Counted from the whole stretch's first letter, positions 2,104-62,476 are shown. The stretch: DNA of 62,476 bases, filler included, from Stramenopiles sp. TOSAG23-6 (GCA_900128565.1; 30 parts of 30 records of this genome joined end to end with filler, not necessarily neighbours in it), one strand, 5' to 3'. Notes: generated by a model not told the origin, from the letters alone. Program-made: numbers and translations.

Positions 2104-2368
2104 TTTTTTTTATACGAAATTTTGTACCTAACGTTTATTTTTTGAATTTTTTTTTTTTTTGTTTTTTTTTTGTTTTTTTTTTGTTTTTTTTTTTGTTTTT
2201 ATTGCAACTTTTTTTTACTTTCATGTTTTGAAATTTCAAAAAAAAAGGTTTCTATCCAATCATATTTTTCTTTCATCTGAGAATTTTTATACCATTTTAA
2301 TTGTTTTTGTTTCGTACGAAATATTTTGTACCTAACAAATAATGTAATTGTAAAAATATTATTCACAG

Positions 2369-2931
2369 TATTTGCGTTTCAGAATTTTTTCCCTCGACAT
2401 AATTTCATACAAAAACCTATTTTAATCATTGCAAAGGTATGTGGTATAATTTCAGTTTGCTTTGGATTAATACCGAAAAGTTCAAATCTTCCTACAAAAA
2501 TACCGAAAGAGTCAGGTAATTCAGCGCATGTCATTGCTGTATGTTTTCATCATGATTTTTTTAATTTTTTTTTTTTAGAAAAATTTTGTACCTAAAGATT
2601 TTTTTTTGGCATGTTTTTTTTCATCATGATTTTTTAAATTTTTTTCAAAAAAAAATTTTCAAAAAAATTTCGTACCTAACATTTGTTTCAAAAGGTTTTT
2701 GTACAACACAGGAACGGCGTAGAACAAGAGCGTTAAAAGCTCTTGATCAAAAGTTAGCTGAAATTGCAAGCCTTCCAGCTGTACGTTTTCATAATGAATT
2801 TTTTACCAATTTCGAAAATAAAATTTCTATAGAAAATTTCATACCTAACATTTAAAAAAAAAAANAATTTCACAAAACATGTNAGTATTGACAATGTGGA
2901 TGACGTGGAAAACTCTGTCTCTGTGATATAA
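2369..2931 (+). CDS. TMEM115: TMEM115-like Golgi membrane protein, 3' exons (2369-2538, 2712-2780, 2881-2931)
   Basis: FAFQNFFP...IQKPILIIAK and AERRRTRALKALDQKL match TMEM115 C-terminal motifs. Introns: 2539-2711 GT-AG, 2781-2880 GT-AT. Confidence 0.7.
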
Positions 2932-3330
2932 AACTTCGTTAGGTAGGCAATTTGGTACAGAAAAGAATAAACTTTGTGATATAAAAATTGAGTTTTTCTA
3001 AATGCTATTATTATATTTATTCTTTGAGATAAATGTGCAAAGTACTGACAGCATTAACTTGGAAATGTCTCTTTGAAAACTGAAAAATAAAAAAAAAATT
3101 TACTAGAAAATTTCGTACCTAACGAATTTCAAACTCAACGTCTTACCACTAGTAGAAGTTCAACTTGTGTTCTTACTGAGTAACAATTTTCACCATAATA
3201 AATGTGAAACTATAATATTGCATTTCCTTTAATCTATATTTTTTTTCTCATGAATAATATCGTCTTTTTTTTTTCAAATTTAGTTTTTTTCTCATTGAAA
3301 TTGTTTTAAATGTACCATTTTTCTTTTGTA

Positions 3331-4105
3331 TCACAGTCGCAGGCTACTCAAATTCTTGTTTATGGCATTCTTTTTCCCACCACTACCTCCCTTTTGTTTT
3401 TTTTTCCTCTTTTTACCACTACCTCCCTTTTGTTTTTTTTTCCTCTTTTTACGACCACTACTACTTGCTCCTGAACTACCACTTGCTCCTGAACTACCAC
3501 TTGCTCCTGAACTACCACTACCTCCATTTTCTTTTGGGGATAAAAAAAATGGACCAGGATTTAGAGATGCCAATAAAGGAGGCAAATCATTGCTCCCACT
3601 TGGTCCTGAAGCACCGCTTGGTCCTGAACTACCACTTGCTCCTGAACTACCACTAGATGCTGAAGCACTACTTGGTCCTGAACTACCACTTGGTCCTGAA
3701 CTACCATTAGATGCTGAAGCACTACTTGGTCCTGAACTACCGCTTGCTCCTGAACTACCACTAGATGCTGAAGCACTACTTGGTCCTGAACTACCGCTTG
3801 GTCCTGAACTGCCACTTGCTCCTGAACTACCACTAGATCCAGAACAACCCATTGGGACAACAGTGGTAGTGGAGGATGTGGTGGTTGGTGAGTTTACGGT
3901 GACGGTGGTAGTAACTTCACCACATGGTGATGAAGCACTATTACCGCCACTAGATGCTGAACCACCACTTGGTCCTGAACTACCACTTTTTCCTGAACTA
4001 CCACTCGATCCTGAACTAGATGCTGAACTACCACTTGCTCCTGAACTACCACTAGATGCTGAAGCACTACTTGGTCCTGAACTACCACTTGGTCCTGAAC
4101 TACCA
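3331..4105 (-). CDS. Ser/Gly-rich low-complexity protein, C-terminal part with Lys-rich tail
   Basis: GSSGPS/GSSGAS 18-nt repeats and a duplicated KKRKKKQKGGSG; stop at 3331; open to the contig edge. Confidence 0.6.
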
Positions 4106-4253
4106 NNNNNNNNNNNNNNNNNNNNNNNNNNNNNNNNNNNNNNNNNNNNTTAATTAATTAANNNNNNNNNNNNNNNNNNNNNNNNNNNNNNNNNNNNNNN
4201 NNNNNTATGAAAAAAAAAATTGAAAAAAAAATTGAAAAAAAATTAAACATACA

Positions 4254-4736
4254 TAAACCATCCCAGTCCTTTCCCGTACCATTCAACCCATGTTGGAAAA
4301 TGATAAGATGATGAGGTTTCTCTGGATGATTATCAATTAAACTCGGACCTGTTGTTGTTTTTGCATCTTGAGTTTTGAAGGTTTCTGATGAAAATAATTC
4401 TTGCAAATTGTCCGGATATGTTCTCACTTCTTTAGCGATTATCTTGGCGATTATGGCATCCAATTTGTCTCGTGTTTCAGTCGTTAGATCTTGTTGTGGA
4501 CCATGTCTCGACTCGAGATAGTCTACCGACGGCATTGATTGAGTTGCAATCTTTGCTTTCGCTTGTTCGAGTTGTTGTCGTGTTGTTCTGTTGGTTCTGT
4601 TCGACCTGGTTGAAGAGTAGTTCTTATCCTCACCACCTTGCGGTCTACGAAGACCTCCCCCCCCACCTGGGGCTTCCTCAGCAGCATATACAGAGACAAA
4701 TGCTGCAAAGAATATGATAAATGATGTTTGTGCCAT
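4254..4736 (-). CDS. Secreted putative lipase/serine esterase (DUF676-like), first exon
   Basis: Signal-peptide-like N-terminus; HLIIFQHGLNGTGKDW motif; followed by a GTATGTTT donor. Confidence 0.65.
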
Positions 4737-4922
4737 TGTTGTAACTTGTGAGAGAAGAAGAGATTATCAAAACTGTAAATATGCTAAATATGTAGAATTA
4801 GTATATAACCAAATAACCGACAAAGTTGCGCGAGAACAACGACGACACACATAAAATTTACTAATTTCGCTTTGGATCAGCTGACAAATTATTTAGGTAG
4901 TGATTTTTGTACTTAATTTGGG

Positions 4923-5206: not shown

Positions 5207-6172
5207 ATGAAACGATCAAATTATGGCCATGTTCGCCACCCAAGGAATAGGTTACACCCACCAATGTCAGTCATTATTAGTAATACATGTCCCCCACCCC
5301 CAATATTACCAGCAGCTCAAAAATACATGCAAAACGTAGAGAAGGAGACAACACCTCCATATTTGATGAAAACAGGTATATCTAGTGATGATTTCTTCAA
5401 TGCTAGTAGTGATGATATATGTAATCGTGTCTTACGTCGTGAAGCGCATGAAGATGATCACAGGTTCTTTTTTAATAATGGGTGGAATCATAAATTTGAT
5501 CGTAGATTTCTTGACAACTCAGGAACAAATTCTAATTCAACGTTAAAAGACCTTGTCCAAGGAGAATTGGAAAACACCCATGAAGCCCGTAAATGTGCCT
5601 TACGAAGTGGTGTTGATATTGACCTTTTACAAAAGCATCGATTTTATCTAAGTCATTCATTGGGGAAGAATGTAAGTATAACTAACAATAGCCATAAAGG
5701 CCATTCAGCAAAGGCTGCAGTGACTGGATGGATGACATCACAGGAAGTAGATAAGAAATGTAGTGATACTCCTAACCCTAACCCTACTATACAGGATTCC
5801 AAACAATACAAAATGTCCAAACACGTNNNNNNNNNNNNNNNNNNNNNNNNNNNNNNNNNNNNNNNNNNNNNNNNNNNNNNNNNNNNNNNNNNNNNNNNNN
5901 NNNNNNNNNNNNNNNNNNNNNNNNNNNNNNNNNNNNNNNNNNNNNNNNNNNNNNNTTTGTACCTAACAAATTTTCAAATTTTTTTTTTGAAATATTTTTG
6001 CAAAATATATACTGTACCCAATGTTTTACCTTTAGATGATGAAAAAAGCTGCCATCATCCAAATTTTGTTTCAAAATTAGTTTTGGACACAAAAAAAAGT
6101 AGAAATCATTTAGGAAGTGATCAAGTGAATTCTATTTTAAAGGGGAATCCACCATTACCAATGAATGAATGT
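5207..6172 (+). CDS. Hypothetical protein, 5' exons
   Basis: ATG-initiated ORF of more than 200 aa, then family introns; no recognisable domain. Confidence 0.5.
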
Positions 6173-6373: not shown

Positions 6374-8205
6374 GGTAGTGTAATGAAAGACGTAGTTTTA
6401 GAAGGTAAACTAAAGGGAACTCCTGATGTTTTGTCGTCTATAAGCGATTCCACAAATCTTGAAATAGAATCCTGTCAAGTACGTTTTCATCATGAAAATT
6501 TAATTTTTTTTTTTTTGGTAAAAAAAATTTCGTACCTAACAATTTTTTTTTTACCGAAAAAAAAAAACAAAAAAAAAATATTTTTTCACAATACAATCTT
6601 CATCTGAAAATAAAAGTCATTCTATTGTCAATGATAAAAAATCTTCTTCTGATACAGTAATTTGTGATACTAAAAGTCGCCGAGTAAAACGTTCGTGTGT
6701 CTCTAATGCTGAAGCTGGACGACTAGCGCTTGCGAAGGCCAAAGCTATGATGCCTAAAGTAGAGCCTCGTATGTTTTTATTTTCATTCCAAAAACATTTT
6801 TTCAATTTTTTTTTATAGTACATTTTGTACCTAAGAAAAAATCAAATTTTCGAAATATTTTTTACGATACATGTAGTTCAAAGGCTCAACGTTTAGTGGA
6901 TGCGAGAAAAGCTGATATTACTACATCTTGGAAACATTACAAAAATAGGTTTTTAGAAATTTCAAATAATCGGAAATTCAAATGTACGTTTTTTTCATTA
7001 ATTTCAAATTTATTTATTTTTTTTTGAAAAGTTTGTACCTAACGATTTTTTTTTTACGAAAAAAAAAAAAAATATTTTTTCACAATACATACACTCCTCT
7101 TGGTAATAGTTATCCCTCATCTTTACGTTCTATGGGACAGTGGCAACGGATGAATGTGTTTCGAATCGAATTGGCAGCAATGCAATATCAACTTTGCTCT
7201 ATTGGAGCTCCGGCTGCAAGTTATTTGCCGTCTTTAGAAGAAAATACTACTTCAAACATTTCTGAAAACCCTAACCCTAATCAAAACAAAAATGCTTCTG
7301 AAGACGAAGAAGCAGTTGAAAAGTCATGGAAAAAATTTCATTTATTTATGAATAAATGCAGTACGTGGCGAGATATTTTACCTATGCTTGAAGAATTAGA
7401 GATGAGTGCTGTGAAATTCTCAGGGGAAAATGAATTGGATGTATGTTTTATTTTCTTTCAAATTCGAATTTTTTTTTCATACGAAATTTTGTACCTAACA
7501 AATTTTTTAAGATTTTTTTTTGAAATATTTTTCCAAAATACATTCTGATAGTCTTGGTGAATTACCTTTGAATGTTAGTCTTTCTATAATGTATGTTTTC
7601 ATTTGAATTAATTTTTTTTTTAGTTTTTCGTACGAAATTTTGTACCTAGCGATTTTTTTTTAAATTTTCGTACATCGTAAAAACTCGTAAAAAATAATAT
7701 GTACCTAACAAATAAATTTTTCTAAAGTAAAACATTTGCACAATACATTTCTGATTTAAGTAAGAATGGTCCAATTTTAGATCTGGAGGATGACGACGCT
7801 GAAGAATTAGAAGCACAAGGCTCATTATCAAATCAAGTAAGTCTAGGCTATGGTTTTGGATTTGGGTATGGCTGTGGCCCTTATTCTCAAGACTGGCAGA
7901 GTGTTCAGGGTATTCGTATCCCTCCTCCAAATGTTCCATCTTCTCAAATCGTCTGTGACTTTCCCCGTTTATGGCGAACACGTAGAGATCGACAGCGTTG
8001 GTGGGCATTTCTTCAATTAGGAAGGAAAAACACAAATGGTGCCGCATATGCTCTTTTTTGTCTAACATCGGCAATTACCCGGTATATTCAAGCTTTGTCG
8101 CACTACCGTCATCAGAAAGGTTTAGAGGAAAATAGTATAGTAACATATAAAAGTGATAAAAGTCGTGGTCTAATCCGAAAAAGATCTACGAAGACACTGG
8201 ATTAT
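6374..8205 (+). CDS. Multi-exon nuclear protein fragment, possibly WHIM/DDT-type chromatin protein (exons 6374-6478, 6597-6768, 6873-6983, 7091-7440, 7544-7590, 7749-8205)
   Basis: Six exons join in frame when five non-AG introns (1 GT-AA, 4 GT-AT) are removed. LWRTRRDRQRWWAFLQ...AAYALFCL is WHIM3-like (tentative). Confidence 0.6.
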
Positions 8206-8495: not shown

Positions 8496-10190
8496 ATTAA
8501 TGGCAACATCAGGTACAAGCCAAGCTCATAAATATAGGCAGTTAATTCTTGAGCAACAAAATAAAGAATATTTACGAAACGAAAATAGTTTTTCTCATAC
8601 TGGTAACAATAATAATGTTGAATTAGGTATGAAACATTTTGGTACAAATTCAAAAAATTCAAAAAATTCAAAAAATTCAAAAAATTCAAAAATTGTCAAG
8701 CATCAACCACCTAACCCTAACCCTAATGAACACAATCAACCAATGAGACAATTACATCTGATATATAATATGATTGAGTTGGGGGAAAGATTAAGTGGTA
8801 CATTTTCATTATGAATTTTTTACTTAAATTTTTTTTTTTTGGTTTTCATACGAAATTTTGTACCTAACAAATTTCGAATTTTTTTTTTTACAATACATGT
8901 GCTTGGATGGGAGATAGTACTACAATGATTTTACATACAACTACAAATAAACCTAACCCTAACAGTACTGTGTTATCTTCAAGGCATCTTGTAACCCCTA
9001 ACCCTAATCTTGTAACACAATGGAAAAACACAATTTTAAAATTTTCATATCACCCCTCAAACCCTAACCCTACCTCAGATGACCCCAACCCTAATGGTAG
9101 TACTAAATATCATTCAGATAAATTTGTCATTTCTGGAAGTGGATGTTCTATATGGAGAGGAAAGCATGTATATTATCTCTCTTATATTTTTTTTCAATTT
9201 TTTGTCTCAATTTTTTATTTTTTGAAAATTTCAATTTTTTTTTTTTTTTAATTTTTTTAAATTTTTATTTTTTTAATTTTTTTTTTCGTACGAAATTTTG
9301 TACCTAACAAAAAAAAAAATAAATATATTTTTCACAAAATATATACCATTTACAATTACAGGACAATTTTTCCCAGAATCAAGTAAAATGATTATAAAAA
9401 AACGTCATTCCACATTATACCATAACACGTGTCAATATATTGGACGACTTGATTTGAAGACAATCATATGTATGTTTTTTTTCAATTTTTTTTCAATTTT
9501 TTTTTCAATTTTTTTTTCAATTTTTTTTTCAATTTTTTTTTTAGGGTTAGGGTTATACAAACACAATATCGAATTTTATCTATAGTTTCACAATACATTT
9601 ATTTTGAAACGACAAACCGTGAAGAATTAGAAAGTCATACTCAAGCAAAATACAAACCTGCTCCTTCTGCAAAACAAGAGCGAAAAGAATTAAAAGCAGC
9701 TTTGTCAAGATCTAACTTTAACTTGGGTGTATGTTTTTTTTTAAATTTTTTTAAAATTTTTTTTTTTTTTTTTTTTTTGTACGAAAATTTGTACCTAACA
9801 AAAAAAATTAAAATGTTCAAAATATTTTCATACAAAATATCCCCATAAGACGGCCTATACGACAGATTCCCATAGTGCTCATGTAGAGTTTGGCAAGGAA
9901 CATTATGTACGTTACTATTTATATGTATTAGTTTTTGTTTTCATATATTTATTTTTTGTTAAAAAAAAAAAAAAAATGTAATGTAATGTAATACAAAATT
10001 TCATACCTAACAAAAAAAAATATTGTTCTTGACATATTTTAATACATTTTATTCTCCACCTGACATTGAGGAACAAAAACGAAGAAAAAAATTATTGGCC
10101 TCATCCAATTTCGAATTTGGATATCAACCAATTGATTATAAATCGAGTAATCCACATCAAAACACTTCTTTTCACAGGAAAATTGTATAG
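8496..10190 (+). CDS. Hypothetical multi-exon coding region(s)
   Basis: Exons separated by family introns (8798-8898, 9729-9840); repeated SNFxL/FG..Y motif; some junctions unresolved. Confidence 0.45.
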
Positions 10191-11890: not shown

Positions 11891-12663
11891 AAGTGAAAGG
11901 CAGTTTCATTTGTAGGGTACCCGGGACACGCAATTTTGTGTCGCAACCTAATGTTAACAGGTCTGTCTGTCAATTATATTTATCAAAATCAAAAACAACG
12001 AAAATTAGTAAAATTCTATACTTGAAAATGAGGACCTTTATATCTAGGATGAAACTTTGTTGTATGTTTTATTTGTTTTGTTTGTTTTGTTGTATCAAAA
12101 ACTCGAAATGCACAAGGAGACCATTGAATCTCTTGACACGTTGCAATAATTGCATTACGAAGTCTTACCCCAATGGCTTCTTCTATTTCAATTTGAGTCA
12201 TATCATATAGAGGTGTACACATGTATTTTGGAAAAATATTTCAAAAAAAAATCGTTAGGTACAAAATTTTTATAAAAAACAAAATCGATTTTTTTGTGAA
12301 AAAAAAAAATAAAACATACATACAAAATTGAGATGTCAAATTTTTGATTTTTGTTTCATCTAAATCGACGGAAGATTGTAGGAGAACACTGACACCATCA
12401 AGAATTACCCATGTATTGACACGAGTATCTTTAGTTATGTTATTGAGAGTATATGTATTTTGGAAAAATATTTCAAAAAAAAACTTAAATTTGTTAGGTA
12501 CAAAATTNNNNNNNNNNNNNNNNNNNNNNNNNNNNNNNNNNNNNNNNNNNNTTAATTAATTAANNNNNNNNNNNNNNNNNNNNNNNNNNNNNNNNNNNNN
12601 NNNNNNNTTTCTTTGTTGTTGGTTATTTTTAGATTTTTTTTGAAATATTTTTCCAAAATACAT

Positions 12664-23157: not shown

Positions 23158-23708
23158 GGACAACTGATAAATAGGCATTGTCTACCATGTGCCAAACAAC
23201 TCGCAGATTTGACCTCAATACAGAATGTGACACAAAAAACGTTTGACAATGCATTGAGGAAATCATCAACATCATGGATAAAGCTTCTACTTCGAAAAGG
23301 CTATCATCCAACTATCCCTCAAATTACCAACATGCTTACAAAATTTCAAGTAAGCAAATTTCTTGTATGTTTTATTTTTTTTCAATTTTTTATCGAAATT
23401 TTTTTTTTTTTTGAAAATTTTGTACCTAACAAAAATTAAATTTTTTTTTGAAATATTTTTCCAAAATACATGAACCTCACATGGGCCTAGGTGTAAATTA
23501 TGCTGATGGAGAAAGTCTAGCAAGCCTTATCGGAAACAACGAACTTGACCTTTTTGATTTTGTGACTGAAGAAGACCAAATCAAATTTAAAATACAACTG
23601 AAGCAACTATATTTGGTTCTATCAAAATCTCGTCCTGTTTCAGAAGACAAAAAACAAAGGCTCAAGGAATGCGTACGCGTGACCAAAAAAATCTTTGAGA
23701 GGGTTTAA
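23158..23708 (+). CDS. Hypothetical protein, 3' exons (23158-23364, 23472-23708)
   Basis: In-frame join across GT-AT intron 23365-23471. Confidence 0.5.
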
Positions 23709-45912: not shown

Positions 45913-46069
45913 NNNNNNNNNNNNNNNNNNNNNNNNNNNNNNNNNNNNNNNNNNNNTTAATTAATTAANNNNNNNNNNNNNNNNNNNNNNNNNNNNNNNN
46001 NNNNNNNNNNNNAAAAAGTAATCAAAACCATTCCCCATGTATTTTGGAAAAAGTATTTTTTTTTCATAA

Positions 46070-46105
<36 letters not shown>

Positions 46106-46140
46106 TTAAATGCTTATAAAAATTAGGGTTAGGGTTAAAA

Positions 46141-47826
46141 CGAACTTTCGATCACATGACTGAAGATAATAAGAATTTGCAGGATCTGCGATATATAATG
46201 CATCAATGAATAAACCTGCTGCACGTACAGCTGCACAACACGAATTCCATTGAAGATTTCCAATATGTTTTGTGAAAAAAATTCTACAATTTTCTTTTTT
46301 TTGTTAGGTACGAAATTTCATAGTAAAATACAAAAAAAAAAAAAAAAAAAAAAAAACCTAAAATTCGTTAGGTACAAAATTTCGTACAAAAAACAACAAA
46401 CACCTTGACCAGCAAATCCAACATAGAGAATATTTGATTGTTTTGATTTGCAAAATCTATCATAAAAATGATCCGTAGCTGCGAAAACTTCTGTGAATAT
46501 TTCTTCCCGTCCTAACCCTAACCCTAACCCTAATGAAGTTTCATTTTTATGTTTGTTTTTTTCTATGCTATTTTGAATACTATAATTTTGATATAAAGTC
46601 TCATTTACATTATTATCCAGGTTTGTTGATGTAGGGTTAGGGTTATTCCATGCAATACCTAGACGTCTTTTGGAGTTTCGTAATGCAGCTTTATGTTCAA
46701 AGATATTTTGTTTTGTTTTTTTTGTAAGTTAGGGTTAGGTTTAAAAAAAATTCAAAAAAAATATTTCATGAAAAAAAATATTTCATGAAAATATATATAT
46801 ATATATATATATAGTAGGGTTAGGTTTTTTTTGGTATATATGTGTGGAAAGAAAACGTACCAGCCTTTTTCATATTAAAATAATTGCAACTCAAACCTAA
46901 ATTTGTTAATTTTGAAAGTTTAGAAAATATTCCATCATTTAATATGTCTATATCTTTTAAAAAATTCATTTGCAAATATAATGATTTAAGTTTCACTAAT
47001 TTTGATAGAGACTGAGGAAGAGCACATAACATATATTGTGAAAAAATATTATTATTATTATTTTTTTTTTTTGGAAAAAAAAAATATTTGTTAGGTACGA
47101 AATTTCGTACGAAAAAAAAAACCGAGTAAAAACATTAAAAAATTCAAAAAAATAAAACATACTGATTATTATGAGCATCGATTTTTTCTAATAAAACACA
47201 ATTTCCAATTTCATTTGGTAATGCCCTAATTAAATTTCCATAAATATGTAATTCACGTAACATTTTTAATTGACCAATTTCAGCAGGTATGTCCTTTAGC
47301 TTATTATCTTCAAGATGTAAAATAGATAAAAGAGTTAATTTTGATATAGAAACATAATTAACAGATGTGTCTAAGCCAACTACTACTGTTGTACTAGGGA
47401 TATTTGAGATTGTAGTGTTGTTTTGATTTTTTTGATTTTTTTGAATTTTTTGAATTTTTTGAATTTTTTGATTTTTTTGATTTTTTTGAATATTTAAATG
47501 TTCAATCTTATTTGATGCTAAATGCAAAACTTTTAATGTTTTTTTCTGATATAATATATTATTTGGTATTTTCTTGAAATTATTCCATGAAGCAAGGAGG
47601 CATTGAACATTATGGCAGTTTTTCAATAATACAAGTATTGTGAAAAAATATTTCAAAAAAAAATCTTAAAAAATTCGTTAGGTACGAAATTTCGTATGAA
47701 ACTAAAAAAAAAAAATTAAATTAGAAATTCATATAAAACATACAAGCGGTGTATCCTGTGCGTTACCTTCCATTTCGAGTACTTTCAAAGAACGTTTTGC
47801 ATAGTACTTTTCTGTTTTGAGAAGAA
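46141..47826 (-). CDS. Multi-exon LRR protein with an additional C-terminal domain
   Basis: LHLEDNKLKDIPAEIGQLKMLRELHIYGN; introns 47633-47743 (GT-TT) and 47031-47162 (GT-AT). Confidence 0.7.
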
Positions 47827-48153
47827 TATTGAAAAATATTTTGTTTTTTGTTAGGTACAAATTTTACTATAAAAAAAAACATTTTGAAAAATAAAATATT
47901 TTTTTTTTTTTTTTTTTTAGGTACAAATTTTACTACAAAAAAAAAAATTTTGAAAAAAAAAATAAAAAAACTTTTGTTTCCTTTGAAANNNNNNNNNNNN
48001 NNNNNNNNNNNNNNNNNNNNNNNNNNNNNNNNTTAATTAATTAANNNNNNNNNNNNNNNNNNNNNNNNNNNNNNNNNNNNNNNNNNNNTTCGTACGAAAT
48101 TTTGTACCTAACGAATTTTAGTTTTTTTTTTTGAAATATTTTTCCAAAATACT

Positions 48154-50011
48154 TCTTCGTTCTTGGGGTCAGTTTTGTCAGTTACCCAATTGGCCATCAA
48201 ATTTTCGCCAATTAAGTTGGTTATACGGAGTAAATGGTCTTCATGTGTGGTGGCCTTCTAAATCTCGTCGCCATCGTCGTTTGCCATCCCCTTTCCATTG
48301 GGAAGCCGATACTGTTCCGATTGCTATTCACCCTTCCTTTGCTGCCATTGCTCTCGCTACGGGTCTTCGTTATACACATGCTCATCTTCCTCCAATATTT
48401 GACCTTCGCCCTGTGGCACAGCCATGTCTTCATGTTTTACTAAATACTATTCTTCATGAATTTATTGATAATATTGACCTTGACAATGAAATATCCATGC
48501 TGATTGTACAGGGGGAAGTTCGTGTAGTATATAAAAACATGGGAGATGAAAATATTGTTCATTTGAACAAGAAAACACTCGAATCAAAACAAATGGATGA
48601 AAACAAGAAAACACTCGAATCAAAACAAATGTATGAAATTGTTAAAACATCTTCATTATTAACCACCCCTTTAGGTAAAGAATTATTACAACTATGCCGA
48701 GCTGCTAAAAGTTTCGGCCATTTATTTACATCTTTTGAACTTTTAGTTCATCATTCATTTCAGCATGCTTTTGAAGCTCGTGAGCAATTATATAAATATT
48801 TACACAAACAAAATGAAATCAAAATAACAAAGCAGGATAAAGACAAATATATGATATCGCTTTTATTGTTTCATTCAGCAGTTGACATTTTAGTATATTG
48901 TGATATGATGTATAAAAAAGAAGAGGAAGAATTGTATGAAAAACAATCAGCTGTAGATGATGGAACAGAAATGTCAGAGCTACAAAGTAATGCTCAAAAA
49001 GATCTCCCTATTAATGCTCAAAATGATCTCGCTATTAATGTACTATTACGTGTAGCTCGAGCAAATGACCCAAGTCGCTGGGGGATGCTATTTGGTTATC
49101 ATTATCCAAACTATCCTATACAATCTCTTCCATTAAGCGACATTTTTAATAGATGTATTTCAGCTGGAAATCTCAAAAAAGCTTTTTTTACATTGAATAT
49201 TCTCAGTTCGGAGTATATACAATCATCAAATTCAAGTTATGTCAATGATGAAACCAAAACGACTTATATTCAAATGTTATTTGATTCTGCACTTCAACAA
49301 AATAATTTATCCATTGCTGCTGATGTTTGGCATCTCTATTCAAAAAATAGAGAAATAGAAAAAAAGAAGGAGAGATCCGCCTCCATCCATATGCATCATG
49401 AACGGCTTTTAAATTCGAAATTTAATGTTGAAGATAAAAACGATCCCTCCTCTCTTGAGGATGAGAAAAACAAAAAAGATTCTCTTAATTTTGAAAATGC
49501 AATTTTAAGGAGTAAACGATCATGTATGTTTTTTTTTTTTTCAAATTTGAATTTATTTTTTCGTACGAAATTTTGTACCTAACAAATTTTTTAGATTTTT
49601 TTTTAAAATATTTTTCCAAAATACATATGATGATGGGATCTTTCAAACGACGCCAAAACAAGGCATCCATGCGAAAACGGCACATTCATTACAAACATCC
49701 TTGAATGCATACATATCCAAAATATCTCAAAAGCATCAATTGTTATATGAAACAGAAAAAGATAATATTTTATCCAAAAACATACATGATGAACATGAAA
49801 ATAATAAAATAAATAAAAATAAAAACAGTGCGGGTGCAGTACATGTTTCGAATAATAATAAAATAAATATAAATAAAAACAGTGCGGGTACAGTCCATAC
49901 TTCAAATAGTGGTGAAACAAAAAAAGTATTTCATGGTGCTGGTGTAGGATCAAAAGTGAATACTATAACGTTGCGTGATAAAGAAAAACAACATAGAATT
50001 CGTGTGAGAAT
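48154..50011 (+). CDS. RIC1: RIC1-like RAB6 GEF subunit, C-terminal region
   Basis: WLYGVNGLHVW, QPCLHVLL, FELLVH, VARANDPSRWGMLF...IFNRCISAGNLKKA. Confidence 0.7.
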
Positions 50012-50234
50012 GTATGTTTTATTTTTTTTCAAATTCGATTTTTTTTCGTACGAAATTTTGTACNNNNNNNNNNNNNNNNNNNNNNNNNNNNNNNNNNNNN
50101 NNNNNNNTTAATTAATTAANNNNNNNNNNNNNNNNNNNNNNNNNNNNNNNNNNNNNNNNNNNNGGATTATGAAAAAATATTTCAAAAAAAAAAAAAATGT
50201 TAGGTACAAAATTTCGTATGAAAAAAAAATTTCA

Positions 50235-50781
50235 AAAAAAAAATGAAAACATACATGATCCATATGAATACTACGAATATCTTCAAGACAATCAACTACA
50301 TGATCCGTATCATTACTACGAATATCTATAAGAAATGGTACACATGTCTTCAAGCAATCTCCTAAATCTAGTTCAATATTTGTCACTGGGACATAATTTT
50401 CACATTCTTTTTTTTTTCTTTTTGAAAATCTCCGGGATGTATTTTGGAAAAATATTTCAAACAAAATTCGTTAGGTACAAACTTTCGTACTGAAAATAAA
50501 TTCGATTTTTTTGTAAAAAAAAAAAATAAAACATACATGTCTTTCCTGCCTGAAAATTTATTTCGACTTTTTCAGAATTGTTGCATTTATCTTTTTTTTT
50601 CTCGTCATCAAAACGAATTTTTGAAAGACTTAACTTAATGCTATTATTTGTTGAGGACGATGAAAGACGCCATGTAATACCACGTGTCATTGGGGTTAAT
50701 AGTATGAGTTCTTTATCACCATTCCCGTATACATTATGTAGAAGTATGTTTACAATTTGAAATTTGTTAGGTATGAAAACA

Positions 50782-50812
<31 letters not shown>

Positions 50813-52088
50813 ACGAAAAAAAAAAAAAAAAAAAAAATTGAAATGAATTTTGAACTAAATTTTGAAAACGTACAAACAATTTGATGTTTTTGTTCTGAAA
50901 CTATAAATCGAAGAACAATACCCGGATACCATTCATTATCTTCCGGCCACAGTAATTCAACTTCTTTGCCTAATAACATCCTGATGTACATAGCTTTATT
51001 CAATGTATGTGTATTTGATATGCTCAATGAATCCACACTTTGATCGATTGAGAAATCAATCATTGGTTTGATAGGTTTTGAATTATTTCCCAATGCTGGC
51101 ATATTCTTATTATCAGAAATATTCTTATTATCAGAAATATTGTTTTTACTAATGATAGAATCAATATTACATTGGTTTGTAATTTGTGGAAACTTTGGAA
51201 AACGTTTTTGTTTCCATTCTAGAAGATTTTCTGATTTAGTTTCCTTTGCAAAACTAGTATTATTTCGTGAAATAGGCGATTCTATCTCTATAGTAGAATC
51301 ATTTGTTTCTTCAGCAGTAGTATTCATTGTTGACTCATTAATTGTAGTATTCATTGTTGACTCATTAATTGTAGTATTCATCGTTGACTCATTAATTGTA
51401 GAATTCATTGTTGACTCATTAATTGTAGTATTCATCGTTGACTCATTAATTGTAGTATTCATCGTTGACTCATTAATTGTAGAATTCATCGTTGACTCAT
51501 TTATTGTAGAATTCATTGTTGACTCATTAATTGTATTTATGGTTACAGCTGCAGCTAAAAAATCTTTTCCAAGTTTGTCCCATGAAAAGTCCATTGACTC
51601 ACANCCAGTATAATAATCTATAATTGCATCTAAACAACTGCGTGGCGCGTGTGATGTAGGATGTAATAAATTTGTCCCGTGCAATTTTGTATTTTTCATT
51701 GAACTCAACCGCTTTGAAATGTGTTCCTTCTCAATTTCATTCATTTCATTTTCAAATTTCTGAATTTCAGAATGTTTCATCAATTTCTTTGCATTTGACA
51801 AAGCAATTCGAATCGATTGATGTATACCATACAATCCACCAGGATAATCGTGTTCTGCACCAGGAGGTAACTGTGATAAAAATCGAGCTTCCAGTAACAA
51901 ACCTGGTCCAAAGTAGGGATATTTCAATCTGAGCATTTTCACGAGCTCAAGTCCAGCGGAAGTACATTTTAGTACAGCTAATAATCGACACATGTTCACC
52001 AGACAATTTAAATTTCCAGGGCTGATGCGCAGACCTTGAGTAAACGCATAGCGAGCAAGAGGAAAACGTTGTAGAGTGAAAGCAACAC
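50235..52088 (-). CDS. CABIN1/HIR3-like TPR protein with an inserted Tudor domain
   Basis: FPLARYAFTQGLRISPGNLNCL and SWDKLGKDFL resemble the CABIN1 N-terminus; Tudor GKEVELLWPEDNEWYPG...HQIV|YGNGDKE spans intron 50729-50873. Confidence 0.6.
51317..51535 (-). repeat. 27-nt coding minisatellite (T/S)TINESTMN, about 8 copies
   Basis: Seen directly in the sequence and ORF translation. Confidence 0.9.
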
Positions 52089-52238
52089 ATGTATTGTAAA
52101 AAAAATTAAATTCGAAATTTGTTAGGTACAAAATTTCGNNNNNNNNNNNNNNNNNNNNNNNNNNNNNNNNNNNNNNNNNNNNTTAATTAATTAANNNNNN
52201 NNNNNNNNNNNNNNNNNNNNNNNNNNNNNNNNNNNNNN

Positions 52239-52293
<55 letters not shown>

Positions 52294-52338
52294 CACAAAA
52301 ATTAAATTTTTTTTGACACATATTTTTAATACACACAG

Positions 52339-54024
52339 ATTACACGAATTCCCGCCTCATTTAAGAACTAGAACATTATTGAATTTACACAAAAGTCTAA
52401 TTTTACAAGTCCCCTTTTTTAATGAGTGTTTGTTTTCATTACTAAAAATGTTTTTTTTTTTTGGTTTTTTATAGTAAATTTTGTACCTAACAATTTTTTT
52501 TTTTTTGGTAAAATTTTTTTTGAAATATATTTTTTTTTCATAGTAAATTTTGTACCTAACAATTTTTTTTTTACAATATTTTTAAACAATGTAGGTGATG
52601 AAAGTTTCATTCGTGAAGTCGTAAATTGTCTTGAATTACAAGTTGCGTTACCTGGTACAACAATTTATAATTGTGGTGAAATTGGAGCAGATATGTAATT
52701 TATAACAAAATTGAATTTACGTTTGATTTTTTTTTTTTTTTTCATAGTAAATTTCATACCTAACAAAAAAAAAATTCAAAAAATGTAAAACAAAATTGAT
52801 TTTTTTTTTTCATACGAAATTTCATACCTAACCAAAACAAAAATTCAAAAATATTGTTTCACACTGAATGTATTTTGTTCAAAATGGATGTGTAAAATTA
52901 TTAGTCGGTCGAGCTCATCAAAATGTATGTTTTATTTTTTCTTTACACAAAAAATTCGATTTTTTTTTTTTGGTTTTATACGAAATTTTTACCTAACAAA
53001 TTTTCAAAAAATTTTTTTGAAATATTTTTCCAAAATACATCGCTCTTCATCACGTAAGCTTAACCCTAACCCTAAACATGATACAACGAATAACACAAAT
53101 GAAGATGAGTCTAGTTATGTGACAAATGAGGATACATCGTCGATTTCTATTGACTCTAGTATGTTTTTTTNAAANTNGAANTTTTTTTTTTTTNGNTTTT
53201 TTATAAAAATTTTGTACCTAACAAAATTATTTTTTTTTTTGAAAATATTTTTCTACAATACAAATTCAGATGATTTGTGGAATGTGAATACAAAAAAAGG
53301 AAATTCGTATCAAGCTCACACAAGTAAAAATAAAACAAATAAACAAAAAGTAAAAAAAGTTAAACGAAAATCGACATTAAATTATAGTACTAGTGTACAT
53401 GCAAAAGACAAAAATGGTACAAACAATAATACGAAAAAAAAAAGATATTCAGAAAAACGAAAACGTCAAAAGTATAAAAAAACAAATGTTTTTAGTGTGT
53501 TACGAGCAGGTGCATGTATGTTTTCAATGTTTTTGTTTCAAAATATGATGTTGCGTGTCTAACAAAAAAAAATTTAAAAAAAAATTTAAAAAAAAAAAAA
53601 AATTTAAAAAAAATTTAAAAAAAAAATTTAAAAAAAAAAACAAATATTTAAAAAAATAATATAACCCTAACCCTAATATACTTTTACAATACATATTTTG
53701 GTGAGGTTGAAGTTCTCCTTCGCAATGTTCGTCGAATTTGTTCTGCAGAAGCAGTCTCAATGACAGAATATTATGTACGTTTTTTTTTTTTAATTTATTT
53801 TTTGTACGAAATTTTGTACCTAACAATTTTATTTTGAAATTTTTTTTTCATACGAAATTTTGTACCTAACAATTTTTTTTTTGAAATTTATTTTTCAAAA
53901 TACATGGAATTCGACAACATCGGTTAAAACATATGCTTTTAAATTTTCCTGAAATTGCAACACAAATGAAATTCGAAGCCTTAACAAAAGTTCGTGATTT
54001 AATACGTTCGATTTATTGGAGAAT
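52339..54024 (+). CDS. Cyclic-nucleotide-binding (CNG/HCN/EAG-type) channel, C-linker and CNBD exons
   Basis: VPFFNE|CDESFIREVV...GEIGAD|MYFVQNG...LRAGA|YFGEVEVL...RRICSAEA; six complete introns (1 AG, 4 AT, 1 AA). Confidence 0.85.
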
Positions 54025-54308
54025 GTACGACAAATCTACACATTCATAAACCCTAACCCTAATTACACTTTATAACTCTACCCCAAAATTTTCTACCAAA
54101 ATTTTCAACCAAAAAAAAAAAAAAAAATTGTGGAGAATTTTTTTTTTTTTGGTTTCGTACGAAAATTTGTACCTAAAATATTTCAAGTTTTTTTTTTAAA
54201 TATTTTTTNNNNNNNNNNNNNNNNNNNNNNNNNNNNNNNNNNNNNNNNNNNNTTAATTAATTAANNNNNNNNNNNNNNNNNNNNNNNNNNNNNNNNNNNN
54301 NNNNNNNN

Positions 54309-54340
<32 letters not shown>

Positions 54341-54409
54341 TATGAAATTTTGTACCTAACAAAAAAAATTAATTTTTCAAAAAAAAAAAAAAAATATTTT
54401 TTCATAAAA

Positions 54410-55070
54410 AATGCTCTGAAATCCTGGGAAAAGTTGGTCCATAGTACGAAACAATACAAAGCAAAAACAACATGTGAAACAACAGAAAAACACAACCCTA
54501 ACCCAACTTTATGTAGTACTAACCCTAACCCTAATGAAAATATAAGAATTCATGTTGCTGATTTTTTGCCTTGGGTTCCTCAAGGAACATGTATATTTTA
54601 TTTAAATTTGAAATTTAAATTTTTATTTAAATTTGAAATTTAAATTTGAAATTTGAAATTTAAATTGAATTTTTTTTTTTTTTTTACGGAAAAAAAAAAA
54701 TTTTGTACCTAACAATTTTTTTTAGATTTTTTTTGAAATATTTTTCTAAAATACATGGGCAAGCGAACCGCCAACACCATGGTTACACAAAGTACCGATT
54801 ATTAGTGTTACAACAAATACAAATACAAATACAAACACGAAATCAAAAAAATCAGAAAAATCAGAAAAATCAAAAAAATCAAAAAAGTTTAAAAAGTCAA
54901 TTCATGTGGTTATTGATGGTGTTGCTTTTCAAAAACTCACAACGCATCGTGGAATAACTCGACTTTGGTCCTGCTTAATACCACGACTCTCGTATTGGTT
55001 AAATGAAAGAAATCATCGAATGACTATCTTACAAAGAACTGGTATGTCTCTCTTTATGTTTTGAATTTTG

Positions 55071-55102
<32 letters not shown>

Positions 55103-56146
55103 CGTAAAAATTTTTTTTTCAAAATTTTAAATTTATTATTTTTTTTTTTTTTTTTTTTTTGAAATCAGTTTTGTACATAACTATTTTTCTATCTAATATT
55201 TGTCCAACATGCAGCAGGGCTTTCTTCTGGTTTGAGAAAGTGGATACCTCAGACAGTATTGAATAAAAATAATGTAGAATTTAGAAGAGTTCCGCCATAT
55301 GATTCAAATAATCAACAAATTGATAATGACATGTACATTTTCATTATTTGAATTTTTTTTTTTTTTTTTTTAATTTTTTTCGTACGAAATTTTGTACCTA
55401 ACAAAATTTTGAATTTTTTTTTTTTTTTTTTTTTGAAATATTCTCATTGTACAATTTAATTTTTGAATCTTCACACCATACATGCTTTTTCGTGTATTTC
55501 GTGCAATCAAAGGTGATATTTTTATTAGTACACTGTATACAAGACCAATTTCTATTTCTGACATAAAAAATAGTAAACAGATAAGGGTTAGGGTTCCAAC
55601 GATTGCTCTTATTCATGATTTAATACCAGAGCAATTCAAGTGGGATATGACGTCATCCGAATGGTCCGCTAAAAAACGTGCAATTCAACTTGCAAACTCT
55701 GTGTAGGTATTAGGTACAAAATTGAAATTTTTTTTTCAAAATTGAAATTTTTTTTTTCAAAAATTTTTTTTTTTTCAAAATTTTTTTTTCATAGTAAAAT
55801 TTCCTACCTAACAATTTTTTTTTTTTCCAAAATACAGAATTACTGTGTCAAAAGCAACAAGACGATTATTATATGAATTTTATAGAGACGTGCCTGCGTT
55901 AAGTGCACATCCGACGACTACCATAAACACTCAAAACGATGTAAATAACAATGTAAATAACCCTAACCCTACCACAAACACTCAAAACCCTAACCCTAAA
56001 AATATTTCACATGAAAAAATACAGAAAAAAAGACTTTTTGTTCCAGTCATGGCTAATAAAGTGAATACAATATTTCGTCCAAAATCTCAATATACAATAC
56101 AAAAATTACGACAGAAAATTGGTTTACATCCTGAGAAACCCTATTG
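54410..56146 (+). CDS. GT4-type glycosyltransferase fragment
   Basis: DIFISTLY...IALIHDLIPE...KKRAIQLANS...TVSKATRRLL. Confidence 0.65.
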
Positions 56147-56398: not shown

Positions 56399-56432
<34 letters not shown>

Positions 56433-56492: not shown

Positions 56493-58226
56493 GTCAACGT
56501 AGGAAGTCTTTATGGGAAATATATCCACAATATCCTTTATTTTCAAGATTTTCTGAATGGCCAAAACGATCTGTACCTGTAGTAGGTTGTGGTAGTGCCC
56601 CACAGTCACCACCACAGCCACAGCAACTTATATGTAGTGTATGTTTAATTTTTTAATTTTTAAATTTGATTTTTTGTATGAATTTTTTTTTTTTGAAAAT
56701 TTTGTACCTAACAAATTTTTTTTTTATTGTAAATTTTGAAATATTTTTACAAAATACGGGCACCTCAAAAGATTACAAATGCATCGATTGTATGTATTTT
56801 TTGTAATGTCTGTCTTAGTCGTCTAATTACGATTGATTCTAGACGATTAATGTATGTTTTTTTTTTTTTTACAAAAAAATCAATTTTTTTTTTTCATTTT
56901 CAATTTCAATTTTTTTTTTTTTTTTTTTTGAAAATTTTATACTTTACAAAAAAAATAATTTTGAAATATTTTTTCATCTATATGTTCCATTTGATGCTAA
57001 ATTAGTAAATCTTGAAAATCCAAAAAGACTTTTATCTCCATTATTTTGTGTCGAAGCGCAGTGGCATATTGATCCTACGTTACATTCAGTCGATGGAAAA
57101 AGTTATAATAATAAAATTGCTACACGGTGGGTGATTAGCTGTGGTTATTGGGATAATCAATTTAGAGTCACTGAAACAAATTCAGGTAAAGTGGTACAAA
57201 CCTGCTCTGGTCATCGTAATGTAGTATCGTGTGTTGCTTTATCTGAAGATGGTGTTACATTAGTGACTGGTTCCGTTGATGCAAGTGTTATATACGTTTT
57301 AATTCTTGATTTTTTGGAATTAATTATTTGGGTTAGGGTTAGGGTTTGAAATATTTTTTTTTGAAATTTTTTTTTTTGTACCTAACAAAAACAACAAAAA
57401 CAAAAATTTAATATTTTTTTAAATTAAATGATTTGGAGTCCTATTTTAGTTCACTGTGCTGTAGATAATTTGCATAATTTAGTACCAAAAAAACCTAGAA
57501 AAACAATATTTGGACATCATGTACTTTTTCAATTAATCCTAACCCTAATTCTGTGTCGATATTTTTTTTCGTAGTAAATTTCGTACTTAACAAAAAAAAC
57601 AAAAAAATTTACTAAAAAAAAATATTTTCCTATACTACATGTAATGGTCAATTGTTGTGCAGTCAATGCACAATTAGGTATTGTCATTAGTGCAGATGAT
57701 GCTGGTGTAATTTTAATTCATAGACTTGAAAGTGCGATTTATATAAGAACAATTTTATGTTCAAAACCATGTACGTCTTCAATTTCAATTTCAATTTCAA
57801 TTTCGATTTTTTTTTTTTTTTTTTCGTAGATAATTTTGTACCTAACGATTTTAGTTTTTTTTTTTTTGAAAATATTTTCCAAAAATATATATTTATCTTC
57901 ATCGATTGGAGTGAAAACAGATTATACCATGAATAGTAATTCTGAATACTTACTATCACCTGCCTCTACTACATTTACTAGTCCAATCCGAACATCTTCG
58001 ATTTATACGTCATATAAAACTCAAAACAAAATAAATCAAATACCTATAGCTGTACATTGGATTAATATATCTCCAAATGGATATCTTGTTGCTTACTCTG
58101 GCGATAATTGCTCTCTCACAACGCATTCAATAAATGGTAAAAAATTAAAATATATAGAATTAAATGAACATTTGAATGCTTTACAACTGACAACAGATGG
58201 TCAAATGCTTCTCACAGGAGGGACAA
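56493..58226 (+). CDS. BEACH-protein (neurobeachin/NBEAL-type) C-terminal WD40 region
   Basis: ISCGYWDNQFRV...GHRNVVSCVALSEDGVTLVTGSVDASV|MIW...FGH...LGIVISADDAG. Confidence 0.75.
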
Positions 58227-60412: not shown

Positions 60413-60512
60413 NNNNNNNNNNNNNNNNNNNNNNNNNNNNNNNNNNNNNNNNNNNNTTAATTAATTAANNNNNNNNNNNNNNNNNNNNNNNNNNNNNNNN
60501 NNNNNNNNNNNN

Positions 60513-60706
60513 AAGACGAAGAAGCAAAAGAAAAGTTTGACAAATCCATCGAAACTTGTCACGGTGACGTTAACGCAACCACCAAAGCATTTGAATCCCA
60601 GTTTGTTTCTGATTCGGGTGAAACACCTCCTGGTGCAGCCAGTGGTCTCGCTGCAATGGCCGCTACTCCATTTGTAATGGCAGTAGCATTTTCAATGTTT
60701 GCTTAA
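60513..60706 (+). CDS. C-terminus of a probable GPI-anchored protein
   Basis: ...PPGAASGLAAMAATPFVMAVAFSMFA*: small residues followed by a hydrophobic tail. Confidence 0.45.
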
Positions 60707-61076
60707 CTTTTCTTTGACGCCAAGAAAAGGACAATTGACAACAATTTCTGAGGAAGAATCCACTCAAAGCGTAATATTTACGTAATACTGTACCTTGTAT
60801 GAAAGAAATCAAGAGAACGTAAACAGAATATTTAACTTGCACATATAATAAAATATGATGTTTCACAATAATCTGATAATCGTATATATTAGTATTATTA
60901 TTTTCTCATGAACAGTCTTTCAATTTTTTTGTAATTAAATTTTTAAATTTCGAAAATGTTGATACGTTTTCCTAATTTGAAATTTGCTACTTTCGTTTTT
61001 GGCCGCGCCAAACAAACAAAATTATTGACTCTTATGTTTTCTAATAAATTCTATTTTTTTCAGTAACAATAGTATC

Positions 61077-62424
61077 ATGGATTTTTATGACGTAATTTTG
61101 TTCTTGGTATCTACTAAAGGGTATCAAACACTTACTATAATTCTATTGTGTGTAGCATATGTTATTTTTACTTTGAATCGTAGAGAAGATGCGAAGTTGC
61201 TAAAGGCTGAGCTGGCCTTGGAGAAAGTAGCAAGAGCAACATTGGCTTCTTCTGTACGTAATGACCTTGTTGACAGTAAACACGAGTACACCAAAGACGA
61301 AGAAGATAATGATATTGTCATCATTAGTAAATGTGACATAAATGATAAAAGTCAGTCATGTTTACAATCTGAACAAATAAAAGTGTGTCGCTCTTCCCTT
61401 TTTGCTCCCTTGTCGCGTAGAAAGGTGGTTGTACCAACTGATTTTGGTAATATTACAGTCGATATCGTTGGTAATCCTTCGACAGCGTCTCGTCGTTTCT
61501 TGGCGTACCATGATATTGGTATGAATGGTGAAAGTTGTTTTAACTCTTTTATCCAAGTATCTCATGGTGACGCGAGGTTCAGCTCGGGGGGAATTTGTTT
61601 CTATCTAGTAAATGCTCCTGGTCATGAAAAGGGTGCAACTACACAAAATGATAATTATCTATATCCTACTATTCCACAGTTGTCCTTACAACTAAAGCAA
61701 ATTTGCAAGACATTGAAAACGGGGCGTGTAATAGGATTAGGCGTCGGAATTGGCTCTCGTATTCTCTTAGAACTTGCGACAAGAGTAAGTCTGTCATCAA
61801 TTATTTCAAATTGTTTTTTACTCTATTTCGTACCTAACAGGTTTTTTTTACTGATTTTACACAACCCAGGATGAATATTCAGATGAGTGCGTTCCCAGTA
61901 TTTTTTCTGGTTTGATCATAGTTGGGCCAACACAGACCAAAGCTGGATATATGGAAAAGATAAGTAATTTCATCATTTCAAAACTTTTGCGAATATTTGG
62001 TCATGGCTATTTAACTACAACTAAAACAAATTCTGCGTTAGAAAAAGAATCATCAGTGCAATTGACAGAGAGTAGAAAAAGTCGTAGTTGGTTCGATGAA
62101 TTTATTTCACGACAACATTTTAGTCCAAGAGCAATGATGTATGTTTTATTTTTTTTCAATTTCGAATTTATTTTCATACGAAATTTTGTACCTAACAATT
62201 TTTAGTTTTTTTTTTTTGAAATATTTTTCCAAAATACAAAAGACAAACAGAATTAATTAATGACATGTGTGAAGCTGCAAAATCTATTCCATCAGTAAAT
62301 ATTTCTGGTTTTATTGAAACTTCTTATTGTAGAATGGATCTGTCGCCACAACAAAAATCAAGATTAAGAAAATTACGGCTCATGTGTATTGTTGGTACAC
62401 ATACAAATAACTTACGATGTCGAT
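61077..62424 (+). CDS. NDRG-family alpha/beta hydrolase with N-terminal TM segment
   Basis: LAYHDIGMNGESCFNSF, VNAPGHEKGA, YPTIPQL, VIGLGVGIGS; introns 61785-61869 (GT-AG) and one starting at 62139. Confidence 0.85.
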
Positions 62425-62476
62425 GTATGTTTTATTTTTTTTTTTAACAAAAAAATCGAATTTATTTTTCGTACGA

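Follow-up and report, generated by a model that had tools for sequence, protein, structure and literature searches.

Introners, which are short, high-copy, non-autonomous elements with inverted ends and a flank repeat, have reportedly given rise to sense-oriented introns on a genome scale in the stramenopile Aureococcus anophagefferens and in Micromonas pusilla. Of their two splice sites, one is said to be carried by the element itself and the second to fall at or within the flank repeat. The introns of both carry canonical splicing motifs, as summarised in a section of PMC7789003. Here we describe a family of intron-like inserts in a 62,476-nt stretch of DNA from Stramenopiles sp. TOSAG23-6 (GCA_900128565.1), hereafter the window. 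The family has shared donor, branch and 3′ signals, sits within genes in sense orientation only, preserves the reading frame and has codon-exact junctions in three conserved genes; all 45 complete introns rebuilt here begin with GT and 34 of them end in AT. Like the introners of Aureococcus and Micromonas, this appears to be a short, high-copy, intron-making element with candidate inverted ends, a putative flank repeat and sense orientation, but it differs from them in its 3′ AT (34 of 45) and in a flank repeat of only 2 nt.

Introns that lack a terminal AG in large numbers are known from a few other lineages. In Fritillaria borealis, AG/AC introns account for 18%, and AG/AT for 16% of 31,093 borders; the introns end in a YAY triplet, which frequently recurs immediately before the 5′ site (passages of PMC13326754). 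Mass non-AG 3′ ends are common to both cases, and here YAY occurs at 33 of 45 ends and in 17 of 45 upstream triplets. However, the Fritillaria classes start with AG, with GT/AG at only 5%, whereas every intron here starts with GT (45 of 45) and combines a GTAYGT donor with a strong CTAAC branch; Fritillaria is moreover a tunicate, its case explained by U2AF paralogues, and the present organism is a stramenopile. In the marine protist Amoebophrya, the ends of the repeated introner families are inverted repeats of 8-20 nt, which fold into hairpins, and 3-5-nt direct repeats overlap the borders; no terminal dinucleotide predominates (PMC7789003, in the part devoted to them). By contrast, the family described here has one dominant GT-AT signature, 4-nt inverted ends and no significant folding. 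In Physarum polycephalum, transposon-like ends with a 2-nt TA flank repeat are the proposed source of thousands of introns, with [AG]TATC[CT]TT donors, a TTTGA branch 9-12 nt from the end and non-canonical ends in 0.8% of introns (10.1101/2020.10.12.336362, in part). Transposon-like ends, a 2-nt flank repeat and GT-AT borders, a minor class in Physarum, are shared with our family, but U12-like donors are found in 0 of 45 introns here and non-AG ends are the majority. Finally, the non-conventional introns of euglenids and diplonemids have no conserved borders and depend on a stable pairing between their two ends (portions of PMC6221363 and PMC12621601). What they share with the present case is an abundance of introns, in a marine flagellate, whose borders are not GT-AG; the differences are an invariant GT, folding that does not exceed that of shuffled sequences and protein matches to stramenopiles.

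Literature searches returned no description of an intron majority with GT-AT (GU-AU) borders, or of non-canonical introns of this kind in stramenopiles or in marine stramenopile (MAST) lineages. In the main text of two MAST-3 genome papers, 'splice' and 'canonical' are absent from one (PMC5778133) and 'intron' and 'splic' from the other (PMC12614181). Introners and mass non-canonical introns are thus a known kind; the lineage and the GT-AT majority appear to be new, in that we found no description of them. The original prediction for this DNA, made from the sequence without database searches, had likewise known of no earlier description, which agrees with these searches as regards a GT-AT majority. 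It had also held that the known mass non-canonical systems carry other signatures, but passed over the large-scale AT ends of Fritillaria and the minor GT-AT class of Physarum, both already published.

The window consists of 30 independent contigs of about 2 kb, ordered by size and joined by 12-nt linkers (N+TTAATTAATTAA+N). A 21-nt core, GTACGAAATTTYGTACCTAAC, occurs 56 times at no more than 3 mismatches, a few of these matches being a palindromic half read from the opposite strand, compared with 0 occurrences in 100 shuffles. Every core copy was read with its flanks, after which frames were checked, and only introns complete within one contig were kept. This curation yielded 45 introns of 85-218 nt spread over 17 of the 30 contigs. 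All begin with GT (GTATGT in 23, GTACGT in 10 and other GT starts in 12), mostly as GTAYGTTTT, with G at donor position +5 in 38 and T at +6 in all 45. The last two bases are AT in 34, AG in 5, AA in 3, TT in 2 and GG in 1. Outside these counts, 12 further 3′ ends at contig starts, read by motif only, gave about 9 AT, 1 TT, 1 GT and 1 AG. Searches with the core pattern gave 0 matches in viral-contig and genome-contig collections.

A TACCTAAC-like core is present in 39 of the 45 introns, with the branch A lying 26-83 nt from the 3′ end (median about 43), and sequence logos show a T-rich stretch downstream of it. With a caret marking the borders, the logos of the 45 introns read (c)AT^GTAYGTTTT at the start, AAATTTYGTACCTAAC(A)A at the branch and GAAATATTTTTCCAAAATACAT^G at the end. 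Two features of U2-type introns are therefore present, a GTAYGT-type donor and a CTAAC- or TACTAAC-like branch upstream of a pyrimidine tract, and the third, a terminal 3′ AG, is found in 5 of 45. The 40 non-AG introns have C at −3 in 34, A at −2 in 37 and T at −1 in 36. Conservation is highest at the GT, the branch core and the final bases, diverged copies included. Of the five AG-ending introns, only 26990-27148 lacks the family core, and the tail of one of the other four, 55703-55837 (gt^GTAGGT..AG), reads CCAAAATACAG where the consensus tail is CCAAAATACAT, with G in place of T. Judging from these aligned tails, G and T alternate at one homologous 3′ position, such that copies with the same tail end in ACAG^ or ACAT^.

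With a GT...NN^ boundary, the frame is kept in 42 of 45 introns, as assessed from the longest open frames on either side, compared with one in three expected by chance. The 3′ ends were first placed by motif and the frame was checked afterwards, a test that fixes ends modulo 3; six junctions were also checked against homologues. Orientation was scored separately. Among 64 core matches, 32 lie near an open reading frame (ORF; at least 70 aa, GC at least 0.30, within 400 nt), 29 in the same orientation as the ORF and 3 in the reverse, and two of these three are spurious antisense ORFs inside genes curated on the plus strand. A family-like antisense copy at 17790-17830 (−), in the low-complexity plus-strand ORF 17303-18130, was the sole clear antisense copy seen near coding sequence.

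The six junctions compared with homologues are codon-exact (three AT, one AA and two AG ends) and fall in three conserved genes, CDKAL1, SIRT2 and Ndr. The CDKAL1-like gene has two at^GT..AT introns on the plus strand. At the first (30538-30656, junction GAY^GRD), the block is unbroken in all three homologues that reach the junction, of eight read; at the second (30756-30871, ending GCAT, junction MTN^PPF), it is unbroken in 8 of 8, and alignments to P0006 and P0001 are ungapped with identical blocks at both junctions. Between the branch motif and the exon, 30756-30871 contains zero AG dinucleotides, and use of the next, 25 nt into the exon, would shift the frame. In 30538-30656 an in-frame upstream AG is present, but its use would add eight residues to the block that is unbroken in homologues. 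The SIRT2-like gene, also on the plus strand, has a gt^GT..AT intron (26554-26721, junction CIS^C) and an at^GT..AG intron (26990-27148, junction LLI^NRE, without the family core and containing TTAGGGTTAGGG), both ungapped relative to the intron-free homologue ORF L001; two SIRT2 homologues on metagenome contigs, at 57% identity, served as orthologues only. In the Ndr-family gene, the AG-ending 61785-61869 (ga^GTAAGT..AG, with family core) and the AA-ending 62139-62239 (at^GT..AA), both on the plus strand, are ungapped relative to P0241, the excised length of the latter being exact.

Near-identical copies recur across unrelated genes. The ends of the element read GTAT...ATAC, an inverted repeat of 4 nt or of about 8 nt with one bulged G, and the flanks are CATG-like: compared with a background of 16%, position −3 is C in 17 of the 45 introns, and 23 are followed by G. 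In 24 of 45 introns the last two nucleotides equal the two exon bases before the GT (21 AT, 2 TT and 1 AA). Of the six ends other than AT and AG, three match the dinucleotide before the GT exactly, with caa/CAA and ctt/CTT identical across 3 nt, and the remaining three have one base in common with it. Pairing of exon positions −2 and −1 with intron positions −1 and −2 was considered and rejected, as tt/TT and aa/AA are identical rather than complementary. Because the flank repeat shows identity, not complementarity, a target-site duplication fits better than base pairing, and we infer that the repeat has this origin. Mismatches to the consensus had a median of 13 among the 13 AT-ending introns that lack an upstream AT, versus 8 (one-sided Mann-Whitney p = 0.08), and the AG-ending copies were the most diverged, with a median of 16. 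Copies may be ageing and drifting towards AG, which we regard as a trend and not as a result.

The DNA itself is AT-rich (GC of 20-43% per 2 kb), and its long ORFs can be read in the standard code. A Pfam scan of 30 long ORFs found kinase, dynamin, Sir2, radical-SAM/UPF0004 (CDKAL1-like), Ndr, U-box, Skp1/POZ, ABC and EGF domains, with no splicing-factor family among them. A C-terminal ABCA-type ORF at 27295-28467 (−) has as its best match P0121 (E = 5e-153), labelled as coming from a MAST-3 single-cell assembly, with identity at 271 of 272 aligned residues and three pieces skipped; the next named matches are oomycetes and Ectocarpus, at 34-49% identity. Because this protein matches P0121 in 271 of 272 residues, and then oomycetes and Ectocarpus, the organism is, by its protein matches, a MAST-3-type marine stramenopile. 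An origin in a marine diplonemid was considered and dropped, since the protein matches are to stramenopiles. Of the sampled words of 46013-56012, a fraction of 0.32-0.67 is present in the DNA runs of one organism and 0.09-0.23 in seawater metagenomes; two seawater metatranscriptome runs share 0.10 and 0.07 of them, which is evidence of nothing about splicing. The three pieces that P0121 skips (approximately 63, 57 and 180 nt) are in frame and bounded by GT...AG within the continuous frame of 27295-28467, and one covers N positions; they are probably artefacts of a gene finder that allows GT-AG only.

Taken together, we consider it probable that these are spliceosomal introns of a MAST-3-lineage stramenopile, mostly derived from one short, non-autonomous element resembling an introner or a miniature inverted-repeat transposable element (MITE), and that they are removed as GT...ACAT^. 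Such an element, about 100 nt long, would supply a strong, yeast-like GTAYGTTTT donor, an extended branch site AAATTTYGTACCTAAC about 45 nt from the end, a T-rich tract and the tail GAAATATTTTTCCAAAATAC. It would insert in CATG-like sites, leaving the central 2 nt, usually AT, on both sides, and removal from the G of GT to 2 nt beyond ...ATAC would produce the end ACAT^. At the same position, diverged copies and unrelated introns of the same genome read ACAG^.

Several observations weigh against this reading. On the side of the element, the inverted ends span only 4 nt without the bulge, 13 of 34 AT-ending introns lack an upstream AT and misfit a simple target-site duplication, and no transposase family was found by the Pfam scan among the 30 long ORFs of the window. 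On the side of removal, the frame rule has three exceptions, 9470-9598 (off by 1), 50873-50742 (−) (which fits GT...AC, 2 nt shorter) and 52925-53040 (ambiguous). Moreover, the frame test is blind to clean unspliced insertions, because the frame is recovered whenever a transposon is taken out together with a single flank copy. In 16 of 39 family introns, splicing would need to skip an AG located 3-23 nt past the branch A; of 17 AGs found shortly after the branch A, 6 are at a multiple of 3 from the intron end. No near-identical spliced protein was found, the best match of CDKAL1 exon 3 being at 67% and the Ndr exon having a single match, at 46%, and exon 7750-8205 had 0 matches among 1.84 billion representative proteins. 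Lastly, at 62139-62239 the residue aligned with an R of P0241 is K in an AT-AC register and I in the GT-AA register, with alignment scores of 699 and 694, which weakly favours AT-AC for that intron.

This last point bears on where the introns begin. If the true termini were AT-AC, of U2 or U12 type, each intron would start 2 nt before GTAYGT and end at ...ATAC. GT is preceded in the exon by AT in 24 of the 45 introns, by GT in 6, by AA in 4, by TT in 3, by CT and GA in 2 each, and by TC, TG, TA and CA once each. AT stands on both sides of 21 introns, and in these, removal as GT-AT, TG-CA or AT-AC would yield the same mRNA, so that even RNA would be unable to separate the registers. Besides the K at the Ndr junction, AC occupies positions −4 and −3 in 34 of 40 non-AG introns, and 50873-50742 fits an end right after ATAC, although its start is GT. 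However, the 21 introns without an upstream AT would then start with GT, AA, TT, CT, GA, TC, TG, TA or CA beside an invariant GT, and a terminal dinucleotide that varies next to an invariant one is unlikely. In the AG-ending introns, including the four with the family core, the register is GT...AG, and at 26990-27148 the homologue supports it, with I rather than S at the junction. In addition, six AT-ending introns (five TAT and one AAT) have no AC before the AT. We prefer the GT-AT register because the GT is invariant and the bases before it vary, because the AG-ending introns use it, with homologue backing at 26990-27148, and because of these six ends; AT-AC termini therefore seem improbable. 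A further argument, that under NN-AC 8 of 12 junctions would carry C, M, W or H, was withdrawn as unsound, because AT^G insertion sites give such rare residues in either register.

With the GT-AT register preferred, the main mechanistic rival is a transformed minor (U12-like) spliceosome, as in Physarum, acting on multiplied transposon-like U12-type introns with relaxed 3′ ends. U12-type splicing tolerates non-AG ends: GT-AT accounts for 17% of 1,014 non-canonical U12-type introns of Physarum, and the elements there also show inverted ends and a flank repeat (10.1101/2020.10.12.336362, in the parts on non-canonical introns and their source). By our own comparison, ACCTAAC resembles the U12 branch consensus CCTTAAC given in part of the same report, and the tail TTTTTCCAAAATAC lies at a U12-like distance from the end, although it is only a partial match to the branch motif TCCTTAAC. 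Against a U12-like origin, the donor [AG]TATCC occurs in 0 of 45 introns and +5 is G in 38. U12 branch sites sit closer to the 3′ end than the conserved branch-like core found here at 26-83 nt (median about 43). The window gave 0 Rfam matches, thus no small nuclear RNA was seen there. We judge a U12-like system to be unlikely.

It is also conceivable that the inserts are unspliced, gene-disrupting MITEs, or that they are removed by a non-spliceosomal route, either a euglenid-like, structure-guided excision or a DNA elimination like that of ciliate internal eliminated sequences (IESs). Frame preservation is expected from any clean insertion, and the case for the junctions is built from DNA sequence. 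In addition, 6 of 8 minimum-energy folds contain a 4-bp GUAU/AUAC helix that joins the ends and leaves the final two bases unpaired. All eight folded introns are, however, no more stable than shuffled sequences (z from −1.6 to +0.3), and the GT is invariant, in contrast to the absent borders and stable end-joining helix of the euglenid type; the folding does not support structure-driven excision of that type. A candidate conserved hairpin, GTACGAAATTTCGTAC, was rejected, as its left arm varies (GTACG, ATACG, ATAGT and GTATG) without compensating changes, and this segment is more likely to be part of the extended branch motif than a conserved stem. The strand bias of 29 to 3 and the location of the best-kept columns at the GT, branch core and last bases, even in diverged copies, also speak against unspliced elements or another route. 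If the elements were unspliced MITEs, 17 of 30 contigs would bear broken genes, the conserved CDKAL1 and SIRT2 included. Finally, the organism is a stramenopile, and we know of no IES-like or structure-guided excision system in stramenopiles. These alternatives appear very unlikely.

Excision at the RNA level by a spliceosome thus remains our preferred reading. The original prediction of a repeated GT...AT insert class stands, and its tally of 37 junctions (26 AT, 3 AA, 2 TT, 5 AG and 1 ambiguous) is closely matched by the rebuild of 45. Its attribution of the inserts to a spliceosome that has lost the need for the terminal G is partly supported: GT in 45 of 45, the CTAAC branch, the T-rich tract and the six codon-exact junctions speak for splicing, and only 5 of 45 end in AG. 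A change in the spliceosome itself is putative, as no snRNA or splicing-factor gene was found in the window. The prediction missed that the inserts form one high-copy, transposon-like family with a 2-nt flank repeat, and are thus elements of the introner type. Similarly, its GT-AT register agrees with the invariant GT but overlooked the AT that precedes 24 of 45 introns and the ambiguity of the 21 with AT on both sides.

How such introns might be removed can be outlined. A U2-type spliceosome would accept U, and less often A, in place of the terminal G: the strong donor and extended branch site would be recognised, and the second step would accept ACAU^. In solved yeast spliceosomes, the branch adenosine has A(−2) as its contact, and G(+1) has G(−1). 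The pattern seen here would be consistent with a change limited to the G(+1)/N(−1) contact. As a more specific and tentative proposal, to which we give slightly less than even chances, the major-type spliceosome of the heterotrophic MAST-3 lineage dispenses with the terminal G and reads ACA-U^ (also A, rarely G) about 45 nt after UACCUAAC. This tolerance would have let an element that targets CATG-like sites and duplicates 2 nt seed most introns of the genome, with older copies drifting to AG. The outcome would be convergence on the YAY^ ends of Fritillaria, combined here with a fully canonical 5′ half.

The remaining introns were distributed as follows, on the plus strand unless stated. Introns of the type at^GT..AT were found at 6984-7090, 7591-7748 and 9907-10047 (all frame-consistent), 7441-7543 and 49524-49626 (near-consensus copies), 9168-9342 (tail ACAAAATAT, with a nearby AG at 9361 out of frame), 34263-34370 (starting GTTCGT), 37135-37289 (AAAT), 54591-54756, 55333-55483, 57521-57640 (starting GTACTT) and 57771-57890 (ATAT), and on the minus strand at 50437-50536 and 12221-12319 (near-consensus). 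To this type also belong 9470-9598, already noted for its frame, which lacks the family core and contains TTAGGGTTAGGG; 52925-53040, whose frames are ambiguous on account of short exons; 53516-53694, without the core and containing AACCCTAACCCTAA; and 17133-17321 and 53775-53905, in which the branch module is duplicated.

AT-ending introns preceded by other bases comprise ct^GT at 2781-2880 (with the family core, an N just 3′ of the intron blocking the frame reading), tc^GT at 6769-6872, tg^GT at 8798-8898 and gt^GT at 9729-9840 (these three frame-consistent), gt^GT at 17966-18183 (tail AATTTAT, branch module duplicated), tt^GT at 23365-23471, aa^GT at 24717-24820 and 33677-33868, and ga^GT at 34029-34145 (without the core). 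Three more lie on the minus strand: ca^GT at 47031-47162 (ATAT), gt^GTTTGT at 46265-46401, and aa^GTTCGT at 46037-46145, which lacks the core, contains AACCCTAACCCTAA and has a downstream frame of just 21 nt. Introns with other ends include the AG-ending 2539-2711 (ct^GT, family core, frame-consistent) and 34485-34592 (at^GT, family core), and the AA-ending 6479-6596 (caa^GT..CAA, a 3-nt flank repeat, frame-consistent) and 53159-53263 (ta^GT). TT ends are found on the minus strand at 47633-47743 (ctt^GT..CTT, a 3-nt flank repeat) and 50742-50873 (tt^GT..(AC)TT, for which the frames fit GT..AC with an end 2 nt earlier, at 50744), and the single GG end at 56639-56759 (gt^GT).

Other features of the window accompany the family. 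The branch module (…ATAGYAAATTTTGTACCTAA…) is present as a tandem duplicate with a period of 34-66 nt in 26554-26721, 17133-17321, 17966-18183, 53775-53905, 52465-52572 and 47839-47964, which suggests intron growth by internal duplication or nested insertion. In total, 25 telomere-like blocks, (CCCTAA) at least twice and mostly 12-16 nt long, occur on both strands, compared with 0.06 expected in shuffles; examples lie at 5771-5786, 8710-8726, 17503-17523, 46511-46533 and 55958-55999. Many are within exons, where they read in frame as PNPN, GLGL or VRVR, and 4 of the 6 curated introns without the core contain one (9470, 26990, 46145 and 53516), with a degenerate block in 30538-30656. They could have been left by telomerase during break repair, or represent a second small insert. 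In a WD40 gene, an intron-like insert at 57285-57430, outside the counts, has the 5′ end ...tatat^ACGTTTTAATT, which is the usual GTACGTTTT minus GT; no boundary pair tried there combines a GT start with the frame that the WD repeat predicts.

The assembly has its own peculiarities. It contains scattered single Ns, and small errors are possible. Many contigs start or stop inside a family intron (for example, at 2104, 5956, 6308, 8409, 23081, 33525, 41857, 48089, 52138, 33424 and 12507). Because a repeat family is expected to break an assembly, contig breaks inside copies are to be expected, and short contigs may be enriched in family introns relative to the whole genome. The contig at 1-2003 is unlike the others: its GC is 0.43 and its GC skew strongly negative, it contains repeats of about 540 nt, and it lacks family copies. 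It could be foreign DNA or a gene for a repetitive surface protein.

Should the junctions be real, this would be a new and independent lineage whose introns mostly violate the AG rule yet retain a textbook donor and branch, and would provide a clean natural experiment on the choice of the 3′ site in the second catalytic step. The family would also be a further case of transposon-made introns, and the second in stramenopiles after Aureococcus. Gene finders restricted to GT-AG would break most genes of such genomes. For MAST-3 single-cell assemblies of about 19-21 Mb, only 2,694 and 3,289 genes have been predicted, according to the portion of PMC5778133 that gives these figures. Functional and ecological inference on these abundant grazers of the ocean rests on such gene models.

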